Source: a virus. Taken from it: 64,000 nt of DNA. The notes under the pieces were generated by a model. It was not told the DNA's origin and ran no database searches. It saw nothing but the letters and a program-made list of their open reading frames with translations. This document shows positions 5,472-62,100 of this stretch, piece after piece. Each line of letters begins with the position of its first letter. Position 1 is the stretch's first letter. A program made the position numbers and the translations under genes. The stretch spans positions 1-64,000 of the IMG/VR virus record IMGVR_UViG_3300029923_000015; one strand, 5' to 3'.

Positions 5472-5848
5472 TGAACAAGTTTATAAAAACCATATCTCCA
5501 GACAATCTAGGTTATGAGTTTTTACGTAGCTTAAATGGATTATTAGATCTAACAGATAGAGAGTTAGAATTGCTCTCTATCTTCTTGGACTTATACTTAA
5601 AGAACATGAAATCCAGAAGAGGTAAAGCTCCAATAGACTCTACGGAGAATAGACGTCATGTGATGAGAGTAACTACAGTTACAAAAGATAATCTATGTAG
5701 ATATATAAAAATGTTTAGAGAGAAAAAGATATTCGTAATAGAAGATGGGATGTTAGTTATGAGTAGAGCCTTAACCCCTATAGTAATAGGTTCAAAGACA
5801 GTCCAAATAACAATGATATTAAAACTAAAAGAAAATGAACTACTATAA
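5471..5848 (+). CDS. winged-HTH (RepL/MarR-like) DNA-binding protein
   Basis: LNGLLDLTDRELELL...KDNLCRYIKMFREKKIF pattern typical of the crAss-like conserved HTH gene. Confidence 0.55.
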   Translation: MNKFIKTISPDNLGYEFLRSLNGLLDLTDRELELLSIFLDLYLKNMKSRRGKAPIDSTENRRHVMRVTTVTKDNLCRYIKMFREKKIFVIEDGMLVMSRALTPIVIGSKTVQITMILKLKENELL

Positions 5849-6095
5849 TCCAACTAGTTATACTAAATGTCCATCTCTATGGTCTAGATTATTCAGATCA
5901 GAAGATACCACATATTATTTTACTTCTGACAATAAACTTGAATGGAAATCAAAAGGCCAAAGGAAAGCAGAGAAGGAATTGGCTGAATACAAAACAAAAA
6001 GAAATAATAAATGTAATCGTAACTTATATAATGATTACTATATTATAGTAAATAAATCATGGTATCCAAAAACACAGACATATATACTGTTTTAG
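5835..6095 (+). CDS. hypothetical protein
   Basis: Overlapping ORF in a tightly packed run. Confidence 0.5.
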   Translation: MNYYNPTSYTKCPSLWSRLFRSEDTTYYFTSDNKLEWKSKGQRKAEKELAEYKTKRNNKCNRNLYNDYYIIVNKSWYPKTQTYILF

Positions 6096-6322: not shown

Positions 6323-6434
6323 TTATGCAGTATACAATGTAATTTGTAAGGGAAATAAAGAAAAATCAACTACTTGTATAGAGAGAAAGGCTGGTTGCGA
6401 TATTAGGAACACATTCATTAAAAAGTTAGGCTAA
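6267..6434 (+). CDS. small Cys-containing protein (55 aa, not in ORF track)
   Basis: MNKKKEDLITKNVATRAFDYAVYNVICKGNKEKSTTCIERKAGCDIRNTFIKKLG fills the gap exactly. Confidence 0.5.
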   Translation: MNKKKEDLITKNVATRAFDYAVYNVICKGNKEKSTTCIERKAGCDIRNTFIKKLG

Positions 6435-6435
6435 T

Positions 6436-6618
6436 ATGGGCCACGATATTAATTTCTTCATAGATGAGGATGGGATGTCTTTAAATTGTACCGAAAGAGA
6501 CCTGGATAATTCAGATAAAGGATATGCATTGAAGCAACTTAAAGATGGGTTTAGACTTAGTATGATAAGAAAACAAATGATGGGGATAGTATATATATGG
6601 AGAAGAATAAGAAAATGA
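6436..6618 (+). CDS. hypothetical protein
   Basis: 60-aa ORF with ATGA overlap to the next gene. Confidence 0.55.
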   Translation: MGHDINFFIDEDGMSLNCTERDLDNSDKGYALKQLKDGFRLSMIRKQMMGIVYIWRRIRK

Positions 6619-7046
6619 TAATACATGAGTTCTACTCAGATATATTCCCAATTCAATTTTGGGTTTTAATAAATCCATCACAAGAGCAGATAGATGATGT
6701 ATTCGAACCAAAAGATAGGGATGCATCAAATGAGATAATAGGAAACTGGAAAGCTTGCGTGTCTGAAATAAATATAAAAAAAGACACAGATAAATATGGT
6801 ATATGGGTTGCATTATTAGAGTTAGACAAAATAACGCCTGGAGTATTAGCGCATGAAGCATGTCATATAACAGATACAATATATACTCACCTTGGTGCTA
6901 AATTGATTGACCTAGGTGGAGAACCACATGCATATTTTATGGAGTGGGTAGTAAGGTGTATGGATGAAGCAATAACAGACAATAAAAAAGAAAAAATGAA
7001 TAAGTTAAAATGCGGCGGAAAAAAGAAACCACCTATTAAAAAATAA
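6615..7046 (+). CDS. putative zincin-type metallopeptidase
   Basis: LAHEACH (HExxH) followed by EPHAY. Confidence 0.65.
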   Translation: MIIHEFYSDIFPIQFWVLINPSQEQIDDVFEPKDRDASNEIIGNWKACVSEINIKKDTDKYGIWVALLELDKITPGVLAHEACHITDTIYTHLGAKLIDLGGEPHAYFMEWVVRCMDEAITDNKKEKMNKLKCGGKKKPPIKK

Positions 7047-7051
7047 ACAAA

Positions 7052-7510
7052 ATGGAATTAAGGATAAACAAAATAGACGAAAAGGCAACATTGCCACAAA
7101 TAGCTTCCAACGGAAATGCATTTGAATTAACTTGTACTAATATATCTACGGCAATCGGAAGAGATGGCAGACTTGTATTGGAATACAAAACGGGTCTAGA
7201 GATTGATGTTCCAGATGGGTATGTTGCAATGCTATTTATAAATGATAATTGCTATAGTAACTCGCTAGTATTGACTAATGCGGTAGCAACATTCATGTCT
7301 GATTCTCCACAAGAGATTGTAGCTAAATTTAAGACAAACACAGATTCAGTTCCTGCAATATATGAGATAGGTGAAGTGTTTGCAAAGATGATTATAGTAG
7401 AATTACCAACTGTAACTATAGTAGAAACTATGTCAAATAACGATACGCAGAAGTTAGTTGCTTCAGGACAAGCGACAATAGAAGAAGAATTATCACAGTC
7501 AAATGGATAA
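7052..7510 (+). CDS. dUTPase-fold protein, catalytic motifs degenerate
   Basis: Overall trimeric dUTPase pattern (KATLP, YKTGLEIDVPDGYV, LTNAV, YEIGEVFA) but the canonical motifs are altered or absent. Confidence 0.75.
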   Translation: MELRINKIDEKATLPQIASNGNAFELTCTNISTAIGRDGRLVLEYKTGLEIDVPDGYVAMLFINDNCYSNSLVLTNAVATFMSDSPQEIVAKFKTNTDSVPAIYEIGEVFAKMIIVELPTVTIVETMSNNDTQKLVASGQATIEEELSQSNG

Positions 7511-7919
7511 GTATTATACCCCTACAATAGAAGAACTTTATGTCGGGTTCAAGTATGAATCAAAAGAAAATTTTCAAGATGGCACTGTAAAATCACAAGA
7601 GCAATTCGATAACGCTAAGTGGGTTAAAGAAATATTTGGAATTAATGATAACGCATATGTAAATAGATCATTAAATGGAAAGAATTCTGAAAATGGTAGA
7701 TGCGGAATTAGAGTTAAATATCTTGATAAAGAAGATATAGAATCATTAGGATTTATTCAAACAATTAAAGATCAATATTATAAAGATGATTTCGAATTAT
7801 TAATAGATGATGATTTGTTTATTCAAATTATAAAAGATGATGGGTTTGTATTTCAAGGTACAATTAAAAACAAATCACAACTTATTATATTACTAAAACA
7901 ACTAGGTATAAATGTTTAA
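7503..7919 (+). CDS. hypothetical protein
   Basis: KYYTPTIEELYVGFKYE...FQGTIKNKSQLIILLKQLG. Confidence 0.75.
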   Translation: MDKYYTPTIEELYVGFKYESKENFQDGTVKSQEQFDNAKWVKEIFGINDNAYVNRSLNGKNSENGRCGIRVKYLDKEDIESLGFIQTIKDQYYKDDFELLIDDDLFIQIIKDDGFVFQGTIKNKSQLIILLKQLGINV

Positions 7920-8235: not shown

Positions 8236-8768
8236 ACAATAAATTAGCAGATATAGTTGGTGGTAAAGTAGTAATACATCAAGACACATTAGAAATTCCA
8301 TGTTTTAAAAAGATATGGAATGATAATACAGATAAAGAATTAGCTACTAAATATATAGATTATATATTCTTTAAACATCACCCAGATAGTCCTTACGTAA
8401 TATCAATGCCTCTGGAATATAGAGATGCAAAATTACGCAAAGAATTATTTATTGAAGACTGGGAGCCTACTCAAGATATTATACACGCAGAAGAAATGTA
8501 TTTAGAATTCCTTGACACATTATTACTCCAGCTATTGACTGGATATAGAAATGCGTTAAGTGCCATAAGCAAATATTTAAACAGTATTGTGTCGGGGACT
8601 CTAGATATGAGGATGGTTAAAGAGGCATTAACTGCAGGTGGTCAATTAGACAAGACAGTTAAATCTATTACTTCGTTAGAGAAACAAGTGCGTAAGGACG
8701 AATTAGAATCTTCCAGGGTACAAGGAGGTAGCGAGGTTGGTCATTATGAAATGCCTAAATCAAGATAA
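8232..8768 (+). CDS. conserved crAss-like helical protein (possible terminase small subunit)
   Basis: ADIVGGKVVIH...DSPYV...SRVQGG pattern upstream of terL; function inferred only. Confidence 0.5.
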   Translation: MNNKLADIVGGKVVIHQDTLEIPCFKKIWNDNTDKELATKYIDYIFFKHHPDSPYVISMPLEYRDAKLRKELFIEDWEPTQDIIHAEEMYLEFLDTLLLQLLTGYRNALSAISKYLNSIVSGTLDMRMVKEALTAGGQLDKTVKSITSLEKQVRKDELESSRVQGGSEVGHYEMPKSR

Positions 8769-9851: not shown

Positions 9852-10328
9852 ATGGTAAATGTTAAAGTAAAGAATGCAAAGACCCACGAATATGATGGTC
9901 AGAAGTTTAAATCAGGTTTAGAGCTATTCTGTTACAAACTACTTAAAGAGAATCGTATTCCATTTATATATCAACCAGCATCATATGTATTGATACAAAA
10001 GTTTAAATCAAACTTTAGATGTTATGAGGATACTGGTAAGATTACTAGGGATAGCAATAAGAAAATACTATCGTCTACTAAACGTTTTGATCTAATTGAG
10101 AACGTAAGAGAGATAGCCTATACACCAGATTTCTGTGGAGTGGATAATGACTGGATAATAGAGACAAAAGGATTTGCTAACGATGCATTCCCATTGAGAT
10201 GGAAGTTATTTAAAGCAAAACTAAATGAAGAAGATTTCCAAGGAATATTAATGAAACCAGAAAGCCAGAAGGAGGTTATGCAATGCATAGATATAATTAA
10301 AGACCAAACAATAATTGAGTATGTCTAA
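9852..10328 (+). CDS. PD-(D/E)XK nuclease (DUF1064-like)
   Basis: KNAKTHEYDGQKFKSGLE...YTPDF...IIETKG. Confidence 0.8.
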   Translation: MVNVKVKNAKTHEYDGQKFKSGLELFCYKLLKENRIPFIYQPASYVLIQKFKSNFRCYEDTGKITRDSNKKILSSTKRFDLIENVREIAYTPDFCGVDNDWIIETKGFANDAFPLRWKLFKAKLNEEDFQGILMKPESQKEVMQCIDIIKDQTIIEYV

Positions 10329-11296: not shown

Positions 11297-11315
11297 ATTG
11301 GTATATATAAAGAGC

Positions 11316-14300
11316 ATGATAGATTTTAATAAAAAAATAAAAAATAGCGAAAAATTTAGAGCGCCAGCAATTTTTTTCCAAAAACATGGACTATACTGTT
11401 TTTCCCCATATGGAACTACTGAGTATCTAACCTATTGGGATACTGAGGCCATTAGATGCGTAGAAGGATATACTGCCCCTGATGGGGATTGGATAAGTGG
11501 GTATAATTATTTTTACTTAAATTATTGTCCGATACTTAGATTAGTCGAATTTGAATATAAGGATAGGTTTGGTAACATGAAGATGCGCAGAGAAAAGGCT
11601 AGGAAATTTCCTGACTTTTATGATTATGACTACTATTACTTTATGGGCGTTCAGGAAGCGCAAGAGGAAGGTGCTCACATGGCAGTTTTAAAGGCTCGTG
11701 GTAAAGGTTTTTCGTTTAAAGGAGGATCGATGCTCGATAGAAATTATTATCTGATACCAGACTCTAAAGGCTATGCAATTGCATCTGAAACTGAATATTT
11801 AGTTAGAGATGGTCTACTTACGAAGGCCTGGGATTACATGGACTTCATAGATGAACATACTGCATGGGCGAAAAAACGTCAGGCTATTAATACAAAGATG
11901 CATAGAAAGGCTTCTATTATTACTACAGATGAAATGGGTAATAAAATAGAGGTTGGTTATAAGTCTGAGATAATTGGAGTATCATTAAAGAATGATCCCA
12001 ATAAGGCTCGTGGTAAACGTGGTCAACTAATCCTATGGGAAGAGGCAGGATCGTTCAAGGATATACTTCAGGCGTGGCAGATAGCTAGACCTTCTGTAGA
12101 AGAAGATGGTAAAGCTTATGGTCTAATGATAGCATTTGGGACTGGTGGTGATGAAGGTTCTAGATTTGATGGACTGAAAGAAATGTTTTATAATCCATCT
12201 GGATATAATATAAAATCGTTTCCAAACATATGGGATGAAGGGGCTGATGCAAATCAATGTGCTTTTTTTGTTCCTGTATACGCCAATATGTCTGTACTAG
12301 ATGAAAATGGACATAGAATGTTTATGGATAAGAATGGTAATAGTCTTAAGACTAAAGCTGTTGATTATGCCATGACCGAGCGCAAGAAAGTAGTTGACGG
12401 ATCCTCTGACTCAAGGGCTATTGATAGGTATATTGCAGAGAACCCTATAACTCCTCAGGAAGCTGTTTTAGAACTCACAGGGAACATATTCCCTAAGAAG
12501 GAATTAATGGTACAGTTGGCCTCAATACGTACAAATAAGAAGCTACAGGCATATAAGCAGGTCGGTGATTTGAATTATGTTAATGGAATATTGAGTTGGG
12601 AAATAAAACAAAAAGGAGATATAACTAAATACCCATTAGGTAGAGACGATAAGCATGAAGGATCAATAGTAATATGGGAACACCCATCACAAGACACATC
12701 AGGGCAATTATACATAGCGGGGTGTTTATTACCAGGAGAGCAAGTAATTACTGACTATGGATTAAAAAACGTAGAAGATGTATCATTTGAAGATAAATTG
12801 ATAAATGAAGATGGATTGGAAAAGAGTATCGTAAATCTACAAAGATATGAAAAAGTAGATGAACCTATATTTAAAGTAAAACCAAATGGATCTTTTAGGA
12901 CTACGACGTTTACTCAAGAGCATCCTATATTATTAGATTCTGGATTCAAAAAAGCATCTGAATTAAAGAAAGGAGATGTACTTAAAATACCAAATAGATA
13001 TATAGATAGTAATAATAATTATATAGATATTATATCTAAATATTTTACAGAGGATTTTAATTACAATGATCCATTATTTTGGTGGTTTCTAGGTATATGG
13101 ATAGGAGATGGTTTTAATAATAAGAATAGTCAATCTCATGATATATATGTTGCATTTGGAATCAAACAAATTGAAGAAGCAAATTTTTATAAAAACGTAG
13201 TTTATTCATTGTTCCATAGAAAAACATTAGTTTGTGTTAAAAATGGTGGAAATACTACTAGGTTTACTTATAAAATATTATATGATTTCTTAGAGAATGA
13301 ATTTGGTAGATATTCATATGGAAAAAGAATTCCAGAATGGGTTAAATATGCACCAGAAGAATTAAAAAAATATTTTATATCTGGATATTTAGATTCAGAT
13401 GGATCTGCATATTTTGATAAAGGAAAATTAAGAGTATCATTTACTAGTATAAATTTAACATTACTAGAGTCTATCCAAGATATTTTATATTCAATGAAAA
13501 TTAGAAATAGTATAGTCAGACACTCAAAAGAAGGTATATCTATATTTAATAATAAAGAATATAAACACAAAGAATCATATAAGGTATCAATTCCAACATC
13601 AGAAATAAAAAAAATATTGCCACTAGATCTTAGTATACTAAATAGCAGAAAAATTAATGAAATAGAGAAATACTCATCGTCTTTACCCAGAAACACCGTA
13701 GAGAAAGCAGTAGTCTACTTCGTGAACAAATACATATTCCTTAAAATAGAGAATATAGCAGAATCAAAATACACTGGTACTGTTTATAACTTTGAATGTG
13801 ATACACACACATATATGTGTAGGAATATCGTCACACACAATTGTGACCCGTTGACAAACTAGCGGTGCGATGTATGTCGTAAGAATTGAGCAAAATCGGT
13901 GAAAGTCTCTAGTAGAAAACACCGAGGTAAATAATTAGATTTCGAAAGGCTAATTATCACCGTAACGCGTAGCAGATGAATAAATATAATTCTGCCAAGA
14001 GTGCTCGACAAGAATCAAACTTGATAATGTACGCTGAGCTATATGGCGACATATAGAAGTAAGGATAAAAAGCCTTGCGATAACAAAACTGATGATCACG
14101 ATAAAGCTGGGACCAACTCATTAGGTGCTACATTTATATATAAACGTATGCAAAACTTTGAATCATATTATGATATCCTAGTTGCCGAGTATACTGGTAG
14201 ACCTGATACGGCAGAAGATTATTATGAGAATGTACGTAAATTATTACTATATTATAATGCTAGATTGCTTTATGAAAATGAACGTAAAGGTATATTTCCA

Positions 14301-14744
14301 TACTTCACACAAAAGCATTGTGATTATTTGCTAGCGGATCAACCTGATATTATAAATGATATTATAGGCAAGTCTACAGTACAAAGACGAAAAGGCATCC
14401 ATATGAATACCCAAATAAAGGATTATGGGGAAGGTCTTATTAAGGAGTATCTTAATGAGGAATTTGCTCCCGGTAAAAAATGTCTTACTACTATTCTGTC
14501 AGAACCTTTACTAGAAGAGTTAATACAATATAATGATAAAGGTAATTTTGACCGAGTAATAGCACTTATTATGGTCATGATATATAGGCAGCAACTACAC
14601 AATATGCATGTGAAGAAAAAGAATATAGAAGTAAGAAAAAATATACTCTTTAATAAACCATTATTCGGCAAAGAGTGGTGGGATTCAAATGATAGCGGCC
14701 TAGAAGAAATAACAAAAAATTCAATAGATATAAATTGGAATTAA
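11316..14744 (+). CDS. terL: terminase large subunit, join(11316..13851,14092..14744); contains an intein
   Basis: LKARGKGFS and LILWEEAG ATPase motifs; removing the intein and intron restores YIAG-CDP-Y-DHDKAGTNSLG; C-terminal GNFDRVIAL; lies upstream of portal; mature protein 689 aa. Confidence 0.93.
12723..13841 (+). mobile_element. intein with LAGLIDADG homing endonuclease (373 aa)
   Basis: Starts CLLPGEQV, block B FTQEHPI, LGIWIGDG and FISGYLDSDG motifs, ends VYNFEC...VTHN followed by +1 Cys. Confidence 0.95.
13852..14091 (+). mobile_element. group I intron, ORF-less, 240 nt (IA-like, with P7.1)
   Basis: 5' exon ends CCGU and pairs with IGS GCGG(13862-13865) via U-G; P3 GAGCA/TGCTC; P4 TCGGTG/CACCGA; P7 GCGTA/TACGC; P9 CTATATG-GCGA-CATATAG; terminal G at 14091; splicing restores frame (T+AT = Tyr). 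Confidence 0.9.
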
Positions 14745-41030: not shown

Positions 41031-43544
41031 ATGAAGCAAAAAATAAAAGTGAAGCCATTGTTTGCTTCTAAAAAGAAATTGCCAAGATATGGTGAAGGAG
41101 GCGTTAGTACAATAGATCCATTAGCCGCCTACCGTACTTCGATCAAACCACAAATTGGACCCGTTAACCCAACAAATACAAATGCGTTAATGACTGGTAC
41201 TGCCGGTTCAGTACCGTCTACTGCGTCCGCTCCAGTAGATGTTTCCGGAATAGGGAATATTGCGTCTGGAGTAGGATCCATGATGATGACAGATGATGCT
41301 AGCAGTTCGCTTAATTACGCTGGAGATATGATAGGAAATGCCGGTAAAGGGGCTTCTATGGGCGCAGCGTTAGGTCCATGGGGGGCTGCTGCTGGGGCTG
41401 CAATTGGTGGAATATATGGAGCTTTTGATGCTGCTAATGCAGAGAAAATGCAAAATAGAGCTAAAGAAAAAGAGCAGATAAATACTAATCTTGCATCAAA
41501 TAACTCAATGTCTGGGTCTGTTAATTCTAATTACAATTTAAGGAATTCATATAATGATAGGGTTCCTGGATTAAACAAAGGGGTTGCTAAATTTAAATCT
41601 GGAATTTCTAATACAAATCAGCCTAATGCTATGATAGCTCCAGAAGAGGGGGTTATGGATGGTGACACTGGAAGGCTATCAATAGTCCCCGGGAAATATA
41701 ACACATCTAATCCAGATACTGTACCGGCCAACCTAACTAATGGCAGTTCTGTATTTTCAAACAAACAATCACAAGTACTTCCAGGTGGAAAAAGTACACC
41801 GGCTGACATTATGGCAAAGGCAGAAAAGATGCAAAAAATAAATGATAAGATATTAACTCCAAAAGAGGGAGAAAGAAAGCTCAGTAGAATAGACCAACTA
41901 ACAGCAAAATTAAATCAAAGGAATATCCAGTTACAGGCTGAGAATTTGAATAAATTTAATATGCTATCTAATCCCATGCAGCAGCAATCAAATGTACTTC
42001 CAGGATATGCAAGAGGGACTGCTAGTTCTGGGGATAGGGAGATAGAGAATGAAATACCAGCCACAGTCTTAAGACAGAGTTTTACTAAGCCGAGCAGAAG
42101 TACAAGGCCAAATGGGACTAGGATAAATATAAGTCCAGCAGATTATTACGCACTTCCAGAAGACCAGAAAAAGCAATATAGGATCGACGAGGAAGCTGTT
42201 CCATACTCAGAGAAAGGTAATACTCCTGGTATATATAATTATGATATAAGAGTAAATAAAGATGTTCCTGCAGAAGCCAAGCCTCAATCAACTCTAACTA
42301 CTAATAATATAAATACGATAGCTGATCCTACTAATAACGTCATTAATAACGTCTCTAACCCAAATACTTTCTCTACGAATATAACTGTCCCAAAAGGAGG
42401 AACAATGGCTCATGAGGCCTTAAAAGCTGTCCAAAAAGCTCATCCAGAGTTAAACGTTAAAGTTATTCCAAAAGATATAGCACTCGGTATTCAAACTCAA
42501 AATAATCAGCAGAAAGGTCAATTATACAAACCTGGCTCATATAACGCTAACTTAGATTTGGGCCAATGGGCTGCTGCAAATAAACCTCAATCGAACTTTC
42601 AACCACAACCAGTTTCTGGAAGCAATTGGAACACTAATATCCAAAACAATAGGTCATTAGATAGAATAGGAGGGCAGAATGATTATACGTCTACATATGT
42701 TCCAGAAAACGATATGAGGTTGGATAATCCAGAAATAGCAAAAATACAAGCTCCGTTAACAAATCAAAATTCAACTAATACGTCTGGGTCATATAGATTT
42801 AATACTCCTATGACCCAACCATTTATAACTACTCCTAATATTGGAGATGTGAAAATGGGAACAAATTATAACTCACAGGCGAGTCAGCCTACTAACCCAG
42901 AAACTCAGGTAGAACAACCTAGGTCTCCGGTAAATTCACCAGCACAAGATCAACCCTCCGCTAACTTTGGGGGAATTAATAAACTTGGGAACAGTTTGAT
43001 GTCATTAGCTCCTATAGCATACAATTCTTGGAACTCGGAACCAGAAGTCGCAACTCCAATATATCAAAACTATACTAACCCCAACCAAAGATATAACATA
43101 GCTCCAGAATTAGCCGAAGCAACAAAGCAAAGGCAAATATCTAGATATGGAAATGCATCTACAAATACAGGAACTGGTGCTAATATGGCGTATGGTGCTG
43201 ATGCCTATTCAAGAGGCAATGATCAGGTATCTGAACTAATGGGTAAGGCTCAAACCGTTAATGCTGGATATAGGAATGATTATGTAAATAGATATAATCA
43301 AATAGCTGGAATGGATGCTTCTGAAAATAGAAGGATATATGATTTGAATGCAAGGAACAGAGCTGCATCTAGAACATTTGGAGCTAAAAATGCAGAGATG
43401 TTAAGTCAGTATGGGCAAACTCAACAATTAATGAACAACCAACTGAACTCTGATAGATTAAACACATATGTTTACAGTCTATATAATACGGCAATGACTA
43501 AAGATCAAAGAGCAGAAGTTAATAGAAGATTAAATCAAAGATAA
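41031..43544 (+). CDS. virion cargo/ejection protein
   Basis: Gly-zipper GASMGAALGPWGAAAGAAIGGIYG, low-complexity N/Q/P-rich body; lies between tail and RNAP genes. Confidence 0.65.
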   Translation: MKQKIKVKPLFASKKKLPRYGEGGVSTIDPLAAYRTSIKPQIGPVNPTNTNALMTGTAGSVPSTASAPVDVSGIGNIASGVGSMMMTDDASSSLNYAGDMIGNAGKGASMGAALGPWGAAAGAAIGGIYGAFDAANAEKMQNRAKEKEQINTNLASNNSMSGSVNSNYNLRNSYNDRVPGLNKGVAKFKSGISNTNQPNAMIAPEEGVMDGDTGRLSIVPGKYNTSNPDTVPANLTNGSSVFSNKQSQVLPGGKSTPADIMAKAEKMQKINDKILTPKEGERKLSRIDQLTAKLNQRNIQLQAENLNKFNMLSNPMQQQSNVLPGYARGTASSGDREIENEIPATVLRQSFTKPSRSTRPNGTRINISPADYYALPEDQKKQYRIDEEAVPYSEKGNTPGIYNYDIRVNKDVPAEAKPQSTLTTNNINTIADPTNNVINNVSNPNTFSTNITVPKGGTMAHEALKAVQKAHPELNVKVIPKDIALGIQTQNNQQKGQLYKPGSYNANLDLGQWAAANKPQSNFQPQPVSGSNWNTNIQNNRSLDRIGGQNDYTSTYVPENDMRLDNPEIAKIQAPLTNQNSTNTSGSYRFNTPMTQPFITTPNIGDVKMGTNYNSQASQPTNPETQVEQPRSPVNSPAQDQPSANFGGINKLGNSLMSLAPIAYNSWNSEPEVATPIYQNYTNPNQRYNIAPELAEATKQRQISRYGNASTNTGTGANMAYGADAYSRGNDQVSELMGKAQTVNAGYRNDYVNRYNQIAGMDASENRRIYDLNARNRAASRTFGAKNAEMLSQYGQTQQLMNNQLNSDRLNTYVYSLYNTAMTKDQRAEVNRRLNQR

Positions 43545-59140: not shown

Positions 59141-62100
59141 TGAAACATTGTATAAATATTCGCTTGAAAGAGTTTCAGGCACTTACAGAACAAACTAATA
59201 TGCATCCAATGGTACTTGCTGCCAAGATGGGTGTATATATGGAAAAGAATAATACTACTGAATGGCCTACATTAGAGCAAATAGAATCTATAATTTTATC
59301 TGAAAAATCATTTGACGAACAATTATCTCAATATGAAAAAGATTATGAATTATATCAGACAAAATTAAGATTTGACGAAAAGCCTACACACCCAATGTCC
59401 GAAGAAGAGGCTGATAGTGAGTTTAATGAGTTTAGTATTATATTTCCAGAGTCGGCGTTATCTATAGTTCCATTCGAAACACTTAAAACCATAAATGGAG
59501 AAACTGCGTATAGAATAGATATTAATTTAGATAAGCCAATAAAACCAGTTAAAAGTAAAATAGAGTTATCTAAAGAAGAAGAATTAACTGCTGATCAGAT
59601 ATCTGAAAATGCATTAAAAGAACAAGAGGAAAAAGATTCCCAATTAAGTATAAACTTACAAAAGAAGAATCAAATATTTGATATGTATGAAGGTACTTCT
59701 AAGGCTGAGTCTGCATTAGGAGAAGACAAACCAGGTACATTTACTAAAGATGAAACTGAATTAGACAAAAGAACTGAGAAAGAGTTAAAGAAATTAAAAA
59801 AGGTCCAACGTAGAACTCAAGCAGTTTTACATATGTTAGCTACTAATATAGGTAAAAGAACTGGTGTTAGTTTTAAAGTAGTTACAGATTCTGAGATGCA
59901 AGAGATATTTCCATGGTTTCAGTCTGGAGATCTTGGAGCATATGATGATACTAGTAATACCGCATATATAGTAAGTAATAATGCAGATGAAACTACTGTT
60001 GTTCACGAATTATTTAGTCACCCATTTCTAGATTATATAAAATCAGTACTATCCTTAAAGTCTATATATGAAAATCTGCTTTTTGAAGCAAAGGCTACAG
60101 AAGGATTAGAAGAAAATGTACGTGAGACATATAAATCTGAGAATATTGATGAAGATGCAATGAACGATGAGATCGTTGCAAGAGCTTTAGATATGGCAGT
60201 TCAGGGCATTTTGAATGAAGAACGACATAAAACACTTATAGATGCCATTAAAGCCTATTTTAAGGCGTTTACAGACACTATTAAGGAGGCTCTGGGCATT
60301 CGTTCCGGTCTAGTGTTTACTATCAATGAGAAGACTACAATTAGCGAATTAGCTAAGTGGGCTTTAAATGGCGAAGGACAAATGAGGGTACTTGGAGACC
60401 TAAATGAAAGAGAAAGTATAGTTGAGTCATTAGATATTATATTTACTGACAAAGGCGAATCTAAATTTGATGAATTATATAAAGGAATGACTATAGATCA
60501 GTTTATAGATAGTTTTGATGTTAATTCTAAAGATTCTGAATTGCTTAAAAATTGGATGTACGAACATAATCCAGCTAATATAGACGATTTAGTTAGGGGG
60601 GTATTGTCTGATTTAAATAGAGAGGAGGTATTAATAGATAAAAAAGGTTTTGTCTCATTACAAAAGAAAATATTTTGGAAACCAGGAGATATGACTGAAA
60701 ATGCTATTAAAGCAAAAGAGTTTTATGTCCATGGATTAAAATCTAGAGCCGCAATATTAAAGAAAAGTAAGGCTTTAACTAGATCGCAAAGAGATGAATT
60801 CGATAAAGTAATTAATGAAATAGAAAATTCGGACGAAGTGGTTGCGGCAATGAAATTTGTTGAATACGCAATGCAAGAAGGATTGTCTACTGAGAAGGAG
60901 TTGAAAGAAATGACAACGAAAATGAAAGTTGGAGATGATATTGATGCAAATAGATTAATTTCTATTTATAATGACTTTCTTAAAATGTTTGATCAGTCGA
61001 TTAAGAATATTTCAGTAATAAATAATAACGAAGATAGTATAATAAATAAATATGCTAGCAAAACTAAACTTAAGGAGTTTAAAGAAAACTTAAATTCAGT
61101 AAAGGAAGCATTTCAAAATTTAGATGAATTATTTCAGCCATTATTTGAATATAAATACAGGAATAAGCTACAGGAAATAGCAGCTACTGCAGGATCTCCT
61201 ACTATGGATATGGTAGTTGAGGATTTGTATAATTCAGAAAGAGATGTTACCTGGATGTCTACATTTGTAGGGAGCCCATCTATGTCTAGAGTTGAGCAAA
61301 TCAGAGCGTTAGATTTTTTACTTACTAACATAAATAATCAAGTAAGACATGATGTGAGTAATTCTGGATGGATATCTAAATTATCTATATTATCTAAAAA
61401 GATGGCTGGTACTAATCCATATGTTAGTTTTATGAGTTTTTACGAGCATCACGAAGGTAAAGCTACTGGATTTTTACTGTCTAAACTTAAATATGGCGTC
61501 TTCTTAAAGGATTATAATAAATTTATGGACGAACTCGCTGAAGAGTTTGACCTTAATAATACATATGAATCACCACTAGATCCAGTAGAGTATAAAAAGT
61601 TTATAGAGAAAAAGGATAAGTTTTTAGAAGAACATGCCGAGAGGATGTTTACTCCAGAATATTATAATTTAAAACACTCATTGTCTCCTATGACTAGTGA
61701 AGTTTTAGATGATTCAAATAAGTCGATTCGCGCCATAACTGATAAATATATAAATGAGTTTGGAGTTCCAGATGCATTTAATATGACGTTAGAGGATAGT
61801 GAGAGATTATTTACACTAAGGAAAGAAAAAGAATTTCTTTCGTCTGATAAATACCAAGGAACTGGACTCCCTAAATTTGGAAGAGATCTGGAGATAGCAA
61901 ATGAATTAAAATCATATAATGAGAATATGAAGGGTAAATTAGATTATCACACTAATAAAACCAAATTTAATCAAGCTAAATCTATTATGAAATCTACATT
62001 GGCTCCAGAAGAGTATATGAGATGGGTGCAAGCAAATACTAAAGTAGAATATGAGCAGTCATTTTGGGACGATTTAGCTTCTTTAGAAAAAGAAAATCAA

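Follow-up and report, generated by a model that had tools for sequence, protein, structure and literature searches.

The first 64,000 nucleotides (nt) of the IMG/VR record IMGVR_UViG_3300029923_000015, a 78.7-kb crAss-like gut phage record, form the stretch analyzed here (hereafter, the window) and contain a gene for the terminase large subunit, terL, that is interrupted twice within a single motif, by an intein and, 10 nt farther on, by a predicted group I intron. The encoded protein, TerL, is closest to those of the Suoliviridae (63% to cr118_1 and 59% to cr10_1). The gene occupies positions 11316 to 14744 of the window, and all of its parts lie on the + strand. An open reading frame (ORF) extending from 11298 to 13862 comprises, in order, the TerL N-terminal domain, the intein, the residues CDPLTN, and a TAG stop codon (13860-13862); this ORF is opened by a TTG at 11298, yet homologues begin at the Met of MIDFNKK (11316), and by homology the true start of terL is the ATG at 11316.

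The first exon, which encodes the ATPase part of the protein and serves as the N-extein (11316-12722), ends in LYIAG and matches PHROG 6681, terminase large subunit, at an E value of 2e-82. It is followed by a LAGLIDADG intein of 373 amino acids (aa; 12723-13841) that has a Cys at position 1, a TQEH block, IGDG and DSDG motifs, and a C-terminal THN. Next come 10 nt of exon, TGTGACCCGT (13842-13851), which specify the Cys at +1 of the intein, an invariant Asp, a Pro, and the first base of a Tyr codon, and then the ORF-less, subgroup-IA-like intron of 240 nt (13852-14091), which ends in G14091 and carries the in-frame TAG. The second exon (14092-14744) begins AT GAT CAC GAT, thereby finishing the Tyr codon before encoding DHD, and contains the remainder of the nuclease domain (C-terminal part of PHROG 6681; E value of 7e-54).

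Joining position 12722 to 13842 and 13851 to 14092 yields a TerL of 689 aa in which LYIAG-CDPYDHDK is restored and which aligns without gaps to the uninterrupted cr10_1 TerL across LYIAGCDPYDHD. Were the RNA junction one base farther to either side, the invariant Tyr would be replaced, and the splice boundaries are therefore unique: the exon ends at U13851 and the insert at G14091, and the ligated exon junction predicted from coordinates 13851 and 14092 reads GACCCGT|ATGATCAC. The initial annotation of this stretch had described an intein and a group I intron in one terL motif, separated by TGTGACCCGT, with a stop codon inside the intron hairpin P1. Its coordinates, spacer, and stop are all correct on sequence and alignment, and both elements are real in that their excision restores the motif as it occurs in uninterrupted relatives. 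The anatomy, with a stop in P1 and the intein within the precursor, likewise supports its view that functional TerL arises only after splicing of the RNA followed by splicing of the protein. The double interruption is not a matter of chance, as the same pairing is present in about 25 distinct alleles.

That the TAG might be read through or recoded was considered and rejected: read in frame, the 240 nt contain TAG, TGA, and TAA, and reassigning any one of these codons would leave the frame closed. Exon 2 also continues the frame of an ATG at 14043, inside intron helix P9, from which an ORF of 233 aa (14043-14744) extends. Its product would be without the Cys-Asp-Pro-Tyr motif, and this ORF is probably fortuitous.

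Identity and fold of the 240-nt insert

By blastn, the insert is 70 to 78% identical to terL insertions of cr7_1, cr131_1, Staphylococcus phages, and phage JCL1032. Its match to the JCL1032 terL intron (E value of 1e-18; 71.6% over 200 nt) falls between the two exon ORFs of a coding sequence annotated as a join, and that intron is reported to be self-splicing (Riipinen and Alatossava 2004, cited in PMC6669764). The alignment with the JCL1032 intron extends from P3 to the terminal G and includes compensating changes in P3, P6a, P7, P7.1, P9, and P9.1.

The secondary structure was evaluated across 29 distinct alleles with an insert at the terL site, using a P1-P9.1 model in which P7 crosses P3 and, as controls, slid pairing partners and shuffles. 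In a structure drawn by eye from these same 29 sequences, which somewhat favors the model, 96.4% of cells are paired, compared with 27 to 46% when partners are slid; 33 pairs have changed on both sides, compared with 4 to 9 in the slid controls; and on four of five measures the observed values were reached by no shuffle. The catalytic core (13886-14034) consists of P3 through P8 and includes the P7/P3 pseudoknot. Within it, P3 (13886-13891 with 14003-14008), P4 (13896-13901 with 13920-13925), P6/P6a (13926-13938 with 13950-13961), P7 (13967-13971 with 14030-14034), and P7.1 (13972-13976 with 13991-13995) are each 99 to 100% paired, and each has compensatory changes. P5 (13906-13908 with 13914-13916) is invariant, and P8 (14009-14012 with 14020-14023) is badly aligned and 65% paired. 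Beyond the core, P9 (14039-14045 with 14050-14056; loop GCGA) and P9.1 (14060-14064 with 14073-14077) are again 99 to 100% paired, with five and four compensatory pairs, respectively. A P2 hairpin (CGA/UCG; 13868-13879) exists in the window's intron clade only, where it shows compensatory changes among the window and alleles L006, L012, L015, L089, and L090. All 29 alleles end in the terminal G, as ...YG before AY GAY or, in allele L188, before TAC, and no ORF of at least 40 aa on the + strand is contained within the insert (13852-14091). A single hairpin (P7.1) lies between P7 and the 3' strand of P3, as in the relatives from Bacillus and Staphylococcus phages (PMC2504315), which suggests subgroup IA. 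On the evidence of homology and covariation, the insert is best described as a subgroup-IA-like group I intron of the JCL1032 terL type, with splicing predicted.

An Rfam search (cmscan) returned no group I match (Intron_gpI, RF00028) for a stretch of 901 nt or for one of 261 nt at E values of 10 or less, nor for the whole window at the gathering score. The same search misses the proven JCL1032 terL intron, yet it detects a different group I intron in L188. Because RF00028 also misses the JCL1032 intron, this subfamily lies outside the model and the negative result is uninformative, and we rejected it as a case against an intron. It could nevertheless be argued, from the lack of an Rfam match and from the truncated RefSeq annotation of the cr7_1 and cr131_1 equivalents, that terL is broken or encoded in two pieces and that the 240 nt are a spacer or an assembly artifact. 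Such an account is hardly credible, given that the insert is conserved with compensatory changes in independent assemblies, is homologous to a proven intron, and can be excised exactly to restore an invariant motif, and that the piece following it is without the invariant Asp and useless alone.

The ORF-less intron escapes both Rfam and protein-domain screens, and the terL genes of cr7_1 (L004; NC_055895.1, 985-4353) and cr131_1 (L005; NC_055902.1, 1004-4346) were thus deposited as truncated genes ending inside the intron, leaving about 650 nt of exon 2 ahead of the portal gene unannotated. Such entries can mislead phylogenies built on TerL and assessments of completeness.

Members of the same intron family (70 to 72%) are also present elsewhere in crAss-like genomes, at 43262-43481 in cr118_1 (NC_055872.1) and at 60299-60519 in cr6_1 (NC_055894.1); of these two copies, one falls where nothing is annotated and the other beneath a gene labeled "endonuclease." L188, which has a shifted intron and no intein at the terL site, additionally bears the group I intron recognized by Rfam (59.6 bits) and two tRNA genes, with features at 5757-5987 and 8594-8750, both on the - strand.

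The intein and the ten-nucleotide spacer

The intein has the hallmarks of class 1, namely, Cys1 (12723), a terminal THN (to 13841), Cys+1 (13842), and a junction, LYIAG|CDPYDHD, as in uninterrupted homologues. It scores 35.1 bits against Pfam LAGLIDADG_3, above the cutoff of 22.5, and 32.3 bits (E value of 1e-7) against Intein_splicing, slightly short of the 35.8 cutoff. Homologous inteins occupy the identical G|C position in the 1,056-aa TerL of cr118_1 and in about 40 other alleles, and a comparison of 41 inteins shows the splicing blocks CL.PGE, T..EHP, VYNFECDTH, and HN to be invariant and both LAGLIDADG motifs (GDG and DSDG) to be kept in both deep intein clades. Among relatives in which synonymous sites are unsaturated, the ratio of nonsynonymous to synonymous substitution rates (dN/dS) is 0.08 to 0.22 for the whole intein and for its endonuclease part, low values that argue for maintained function and indicate purifying selection on the endonuclease domain.

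The intein of the window is unusually divergent, having 55 to 60% identity to every other intein, yet it deviates at just 2 of 75 highly conserved columns. Its identity to the L006 intein is 59%, versus 89% for the exteins, and we considered whether it had been replaced in this lineage. The synonymous distances to L006 are alike for intein (0.9) and extein (1.2), so replacement was rejected, and the divergence reflects faster protein evolution (dN/dS of 0.41), not a swap.

Further copies of the intron or the intein were not found in the 78.7-kb record. The only candidate for a free-standing helper endonuclease nearby is an ORF of 158 aa upstream of terL (9852-10328); its match to DUF1064, a phage family without an assigned function, is below threshold (E value of 1.7e-4; 22.4 bits, with a cutoff of 24.7). 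An intein 24 to 25% identical to that of the window is present at a second site, about 460 nt deeper in the nuclease domain, in alleles whose G|C site is empty (L042, L046, L047, and L061 at 6418-7524, L074 at 6382-7497, and L084 at 6415-7518). Members of the same family as the window's intein (35 to 40% identity) also occur at the equivalent G|CD of another terminase type, with the motif YIMG|CDVSRGDGED, in environmental phages (loci L107-L112, L114, L116, L123-L127, L132-L135, L138, L150, L152, L153, and L155), from which it follows that the intein crossed between terminase families at this motif.

The 10 nt between the two elements belong to both. Hairpin P1 (13848-13865) is formed by a 5' strand (13848-13853) made up of exon CCGU and intron UG, a loop of ACAAAC, and a 3' strand that acts as the guide (13860-13865). 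Exon CCGU pairs with GCGG (13862-13865), and the A and G of the stop codon sit in the 3' strand. The wobble at the splice site, U13851-G13862, is a U-G pair in 28 of 29 alleles, and the neighboring exon C-G pairs are present in 22 to 29 of them. GAC CCG T is fixed in all intron-bearing alleles, whereas alleles with the intein alone or with neither element show the looser GAY CCN, so it is pairing in P1 that holds the Pro codon. No convincing P10 pairing of the guide region with exon 2 was seen on inspection by eye.

Constraint from the intein falls on the preceding codon. Cys+1 is the intein's nucleophile and is required by it; empty alleles keep Cys at +1 in clades where the intein circulates, and those of intein-free clades have Ile, Val, Met, Asn, or Ala. 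The Asp that follows is invariant in 16 homologues. The uninterrupted TerL of L008 has no match in Pfam or PDB sequence searches; to locate the nuclease domain, we therefore turned to structure and modeled the homologous C-terminal domain of this allele (predicted local distance difference test score of 71.6). The best matches to the model are without exception nuclease domains of terminases, those of RB49 and T4 gp17, G20c, and a T7 model, with a Foldseek E value of 1e-4 to RB49 gp17, VIA Z scores of 5.8 to 7.9, and root mean square deviations of 2.2 to 3.0 over about 90 residues. RuvC residue 1 aligns to residue 56 of the model, which would place the invariant Asp (Asp62 in the model) opposite RuvC Asp7, a correspondence taken from aligned ranges and not from a residue-level alignment. 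The invariant Asp would accordingly be the first metal-binding Asp of an RNase H/RuvC-like nuclease, in a motif expected where strand beta-1 ends. Of the earlier proposal that the interruptions fall in the first active-site motif of the terminase nuclease, the assignment to a terminase nuclease is backed by these structural matches, and the placement of the catalytic Asp is an approximate one from the aligned ranges. The 10 nt would thus be under three constraints: protein splicing through Cys+1, terminase catalysis through the predicted Asp, and ribozyme pairing through P1.

Expression of the gene can be outlined from this arrangement. In the transcribed pre-mRNA, the 240-nt ribozyme would pair exon CCGU with guide GCGG to form P1, cut after U13851, and join that end to A14092. 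The ligated message would be translated into a precursor of 1,062 aa, from which the intein (Cys1 to His-Asn, with Cys+1) would excise itself, leaving the 689-aa TerL and a free LAGLIDADG endonuclease. On unspliced RNA, ribosomes would halt at the UAG in P1, giving a product that keeps the whole intein and Cys+1.

Distribution and linkage of the two elements

The initial annotation had proposed a survey of related terL alleles for their content of the two elements. Ours drew on four sets of IMG/VR searches (TerL-seeded, intein-seeded, based on the intron motif, and TerL-seeded again from a sister clade) and comprises 172 loci covering the site, with 114 distinct terL alleles in the final extein tree. 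All four states, i.e., empty, intron-only, intein-only, and both, occur among these alleles, and the double state is found in RefSeq genomes cr7_1 and cr131_1 as well as in the distinct IMG/VR alleles counted above. In the window's own clade, sisters differ as "both" versus "empty" (L006/L008 and L015/L014), with no single-element intermediates. Across 14 independent contrasts in intein presence, the intron changed in the same way in 10.5, in the opposite way in none, and not at all in 3.5 (sign test; P of ~0.002). The idea, raised in the initial annotation, that the intron hitchhikes with the intein holds as far as joint gain or loss is concerned, seen in about 10 of 14 contrasts with none opposite, and fails as far as an obligate composite element is concerned, as alleles with a single element exist. 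Joint change of this kind is the outcome to be expected if the intron hitchhikes through co-conversion.

These same states bear on the suggestion, also made at the outset, of a two-step gate in which the need for RNA and protein splicing delays or tunes the appearance of active terminase. The anatomy is what speaks for a gate, since both reactions are needed for active TerL and unspliced RNA would yield an ATPase-only product. However, close relatives with exteins 89% identical are without both elements, every state is found as a polymorphism inside one population, and early in-frame stops in P1 or P2 are general in phage group I introns (PMC2504315), so the stop in P1 is no special gate. The pattern is that of selfish elements and not of a conserved regulatory device, and we judge an adaptive gate highly improbable.

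The reading that we favor, and consider probable, is that two self-splicing parasites, each independent of the other, occupy adjacent positions within the first nuclease motif of terL and are linked mostly by co-transfer. Double-strand-break repair or recombination that copies the intein into an empty allele would have to begin copying beyond the intron; because only 10 nt separate the elements and repair needs homology beyond the intron, joint transfer is expected. The elements would then mostly be gained and lost as one unit, with the intron most likely riding on the intein endonuclease, and ordinary recombination together with precise loss would yield intron-only, intein-only, and intein-swapped alleles. 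The linkage is probably due to co-conversion, to judge from the allele patterns. Inferred in this reading are the order in which splicing occurs, an active endonuclease, and a causal role of co-conversion in the linkage.

Several observations weigh against so close a partnership. Sampling was biased, in that the intein or an intron motif served as the seed in two of the searches. Alleles with the intron only exist at the identical site with Cys+1 (L291, L311, and L294), and L188 has the intron only, with Asn at +1 and the intron shifted by 1 nt. The intein of L142 is 100% identical to that of L143, yet L142 is without the 229-nt intron exactly. Conversely, L096 and L143 have exteins and intron that are 97 to 100% identical and intein cores that are only 51 to 69% identical at the DNA level and belong to two deep intein clades. 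Intein-only alleles are common. The flanks of the identical inteins in L142 and L143 are just 92 to 97% identical, which implies recent movement of the intein, and the comparison of the two alleles implies that the elements have recently been uncoupled at least once, by transfer of the intein or by loss of the intron. The intron-only alleles show that the intron can persist or spread without the intein. Independent distribution had been named in the initial annotation as grounds for discarding co-mobility; the intron-only, intein-only, and swapped alleles supply part of such a distribution, and the association is still positive. The pair is made up of separable selfish elements that are tightly linked, not an obligate composite, and the site is a polymorphic hot spot and not a fused element.

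Separability could also mean that each element targets the conserved motif alone and that common descent, together with ordinary recombination between co-infecting phages, accounts for their joint occurrence, with the endonuclease having no role in the spread of the intron. One species-level cluster with terL flanks 93 to 97% identical does contain empty, intron-only, and intein-only alleles along with double alleles carrying either intein clade, so that four states (five when the two intein clades are counted) co-occur in one population. Consistent with such independence, introns of this family occur widely in unrelated genes and in intein-free phages, and intron divergence follows extein divergence (Spearman coefficient of 0.72) more than intein divergence does (0.50). 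Set against this are some 10 independent contrasts in which the two elements were gained or lost together, with opposite changes never seen, the presence of only "both" and "empty" in the window's clade, and a 10-nt spacing that makes joint transfer nearly unavoidable once the intein moves. For these reasons we regard wholly independent occupancy as unlikely.

Recognition sites of LAGLIDADG endonucleases usually reach as far as 10 nt from the insertion point. The intron, beginning at just that distance from the intein insertion point, might then alter the downstream half of the endonuclease site, so that intron-only alleles resist the intein or the two elements compete. Neighboring inteins in haloarchaeal MCM were found to hinder each other's homing (PMC10643990), and within a single population, alleles that have only the intron persist alongside alleles that carry the intein. 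Yet the elements are associated positively, not negatively, and two different inteins occur beside the same intron, so the intron allele is open to the intein (although plain recombination could also bring this about). Interference or immunity of this kind is very unlikely as an explanation of the pattern.

Returning to linkage by co-transfer, a more specific version of it would make the intein-borne LAGLIDADG endonuclease the mobility engine of the gene-less intron 10 nt away, a case of collaborative homing across element classes. This is possible, if somewhat doubtful; if true, the homing cycle of the pair would be directly measurable, with every allele state available in natural populations.

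Relation to known elements

Inteins in the TerL proteins of Delta-group (Suoliviridae) crAss-like phages are already published (Yutin et al. 2021, PMC7886860; review, PMC10136315), as are group I introns in phage terminase genes (PMC2504315). The intein of the window is of the same kind, in the same gene and the same phage group, as those of the former accounts, in which introns were detected via endonuclease domains, TerL is described as "containing an intein," and introns are reported in MCP, PolB, and primase; unlike here, an ORF-less intron 10 nt downstream of the TerL intein goes unmentioned there. In the literature that we searched, neither an ORF-less intron beside the TerL intein of crAss-like phages nor any intein and intron spaced so closely is mentioned. 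New in the present analysis are the survey of four allele states, the test by independent contrasts, the alleles with only the intron, the swapped inteins, and the codon constraint imposed by P1.

The intron is like that of the JCL1032 terL gene in belonging to the same ribozyme family (72% over 200 nt), in being ORF-less, in residing in a terminase gene, and in having an in-frame stop near its 5' end. It differs in that the JCL1032 intron interrupts the ATPase part of terL, some 470 nt into the gene, belongs to a phage of the Bacillota and not to a crAss-like phage, and has no adjacent intein. The host of JCL1032 is Lactobacillus delbrueckii, and related introns occur in Staphylococcus phages (ROSA and 6ec-like) and in prophages of the Bacillus cereus group (PMC2504315).

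Collaborative or trans homing is known from the cyanophage psbA intron with F-CphI and from T4 mobE with I-TevIII (PMC2790892), and I-PogI is reported to cleave at the site of a neighboring ORF-less intron (Nakayama 2003, cited in PMC10643990). As in those systems, a gene-less intron adjoins an endonuclease-bearing element in terL, and joint conversion after a nearby double-strand break is expected; unlike them, the presumed helper endonuclease is intein-borne rather than free-standing or inside another intron, and the link here comes from comparative data.

Inteins and group I introns are usually studied separately, and in this terL they share 10 nt of an essential active-site motif. In the bnrdE gene of SPbeta and in multi-intein genes, the elements are well separated or are all inteins. 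What terL has in common with bnrdE of this Bacillus phage, a ribonucleotide reductase gene with a group I intron and an intein, and with haloarchaeal MCM (PMC10643990) is the presence of several self-splicing elements in conserved motifs of one essential gene; what sets it apart is that elements of two classes lie 10 nt apart, with bases common to the intein +1 codon and intron P1. Wild populations show both strong linkage and clear recombination of these two classes of selfish element, and the site offers a natural system for asking whether neighboring homing elements help each other, through co-homing, or hinder each other.

One further feature concerns the genetic code of the wider group. 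The terL exons of the window have no in-frame TAG, unlike those of many relatives, and in most of the more distant ones (L023-L085 and L188), terL contains two to six in-frame TAG codons in its last third and ends in TAA or TGA, which points to TAG recoding in those phages.

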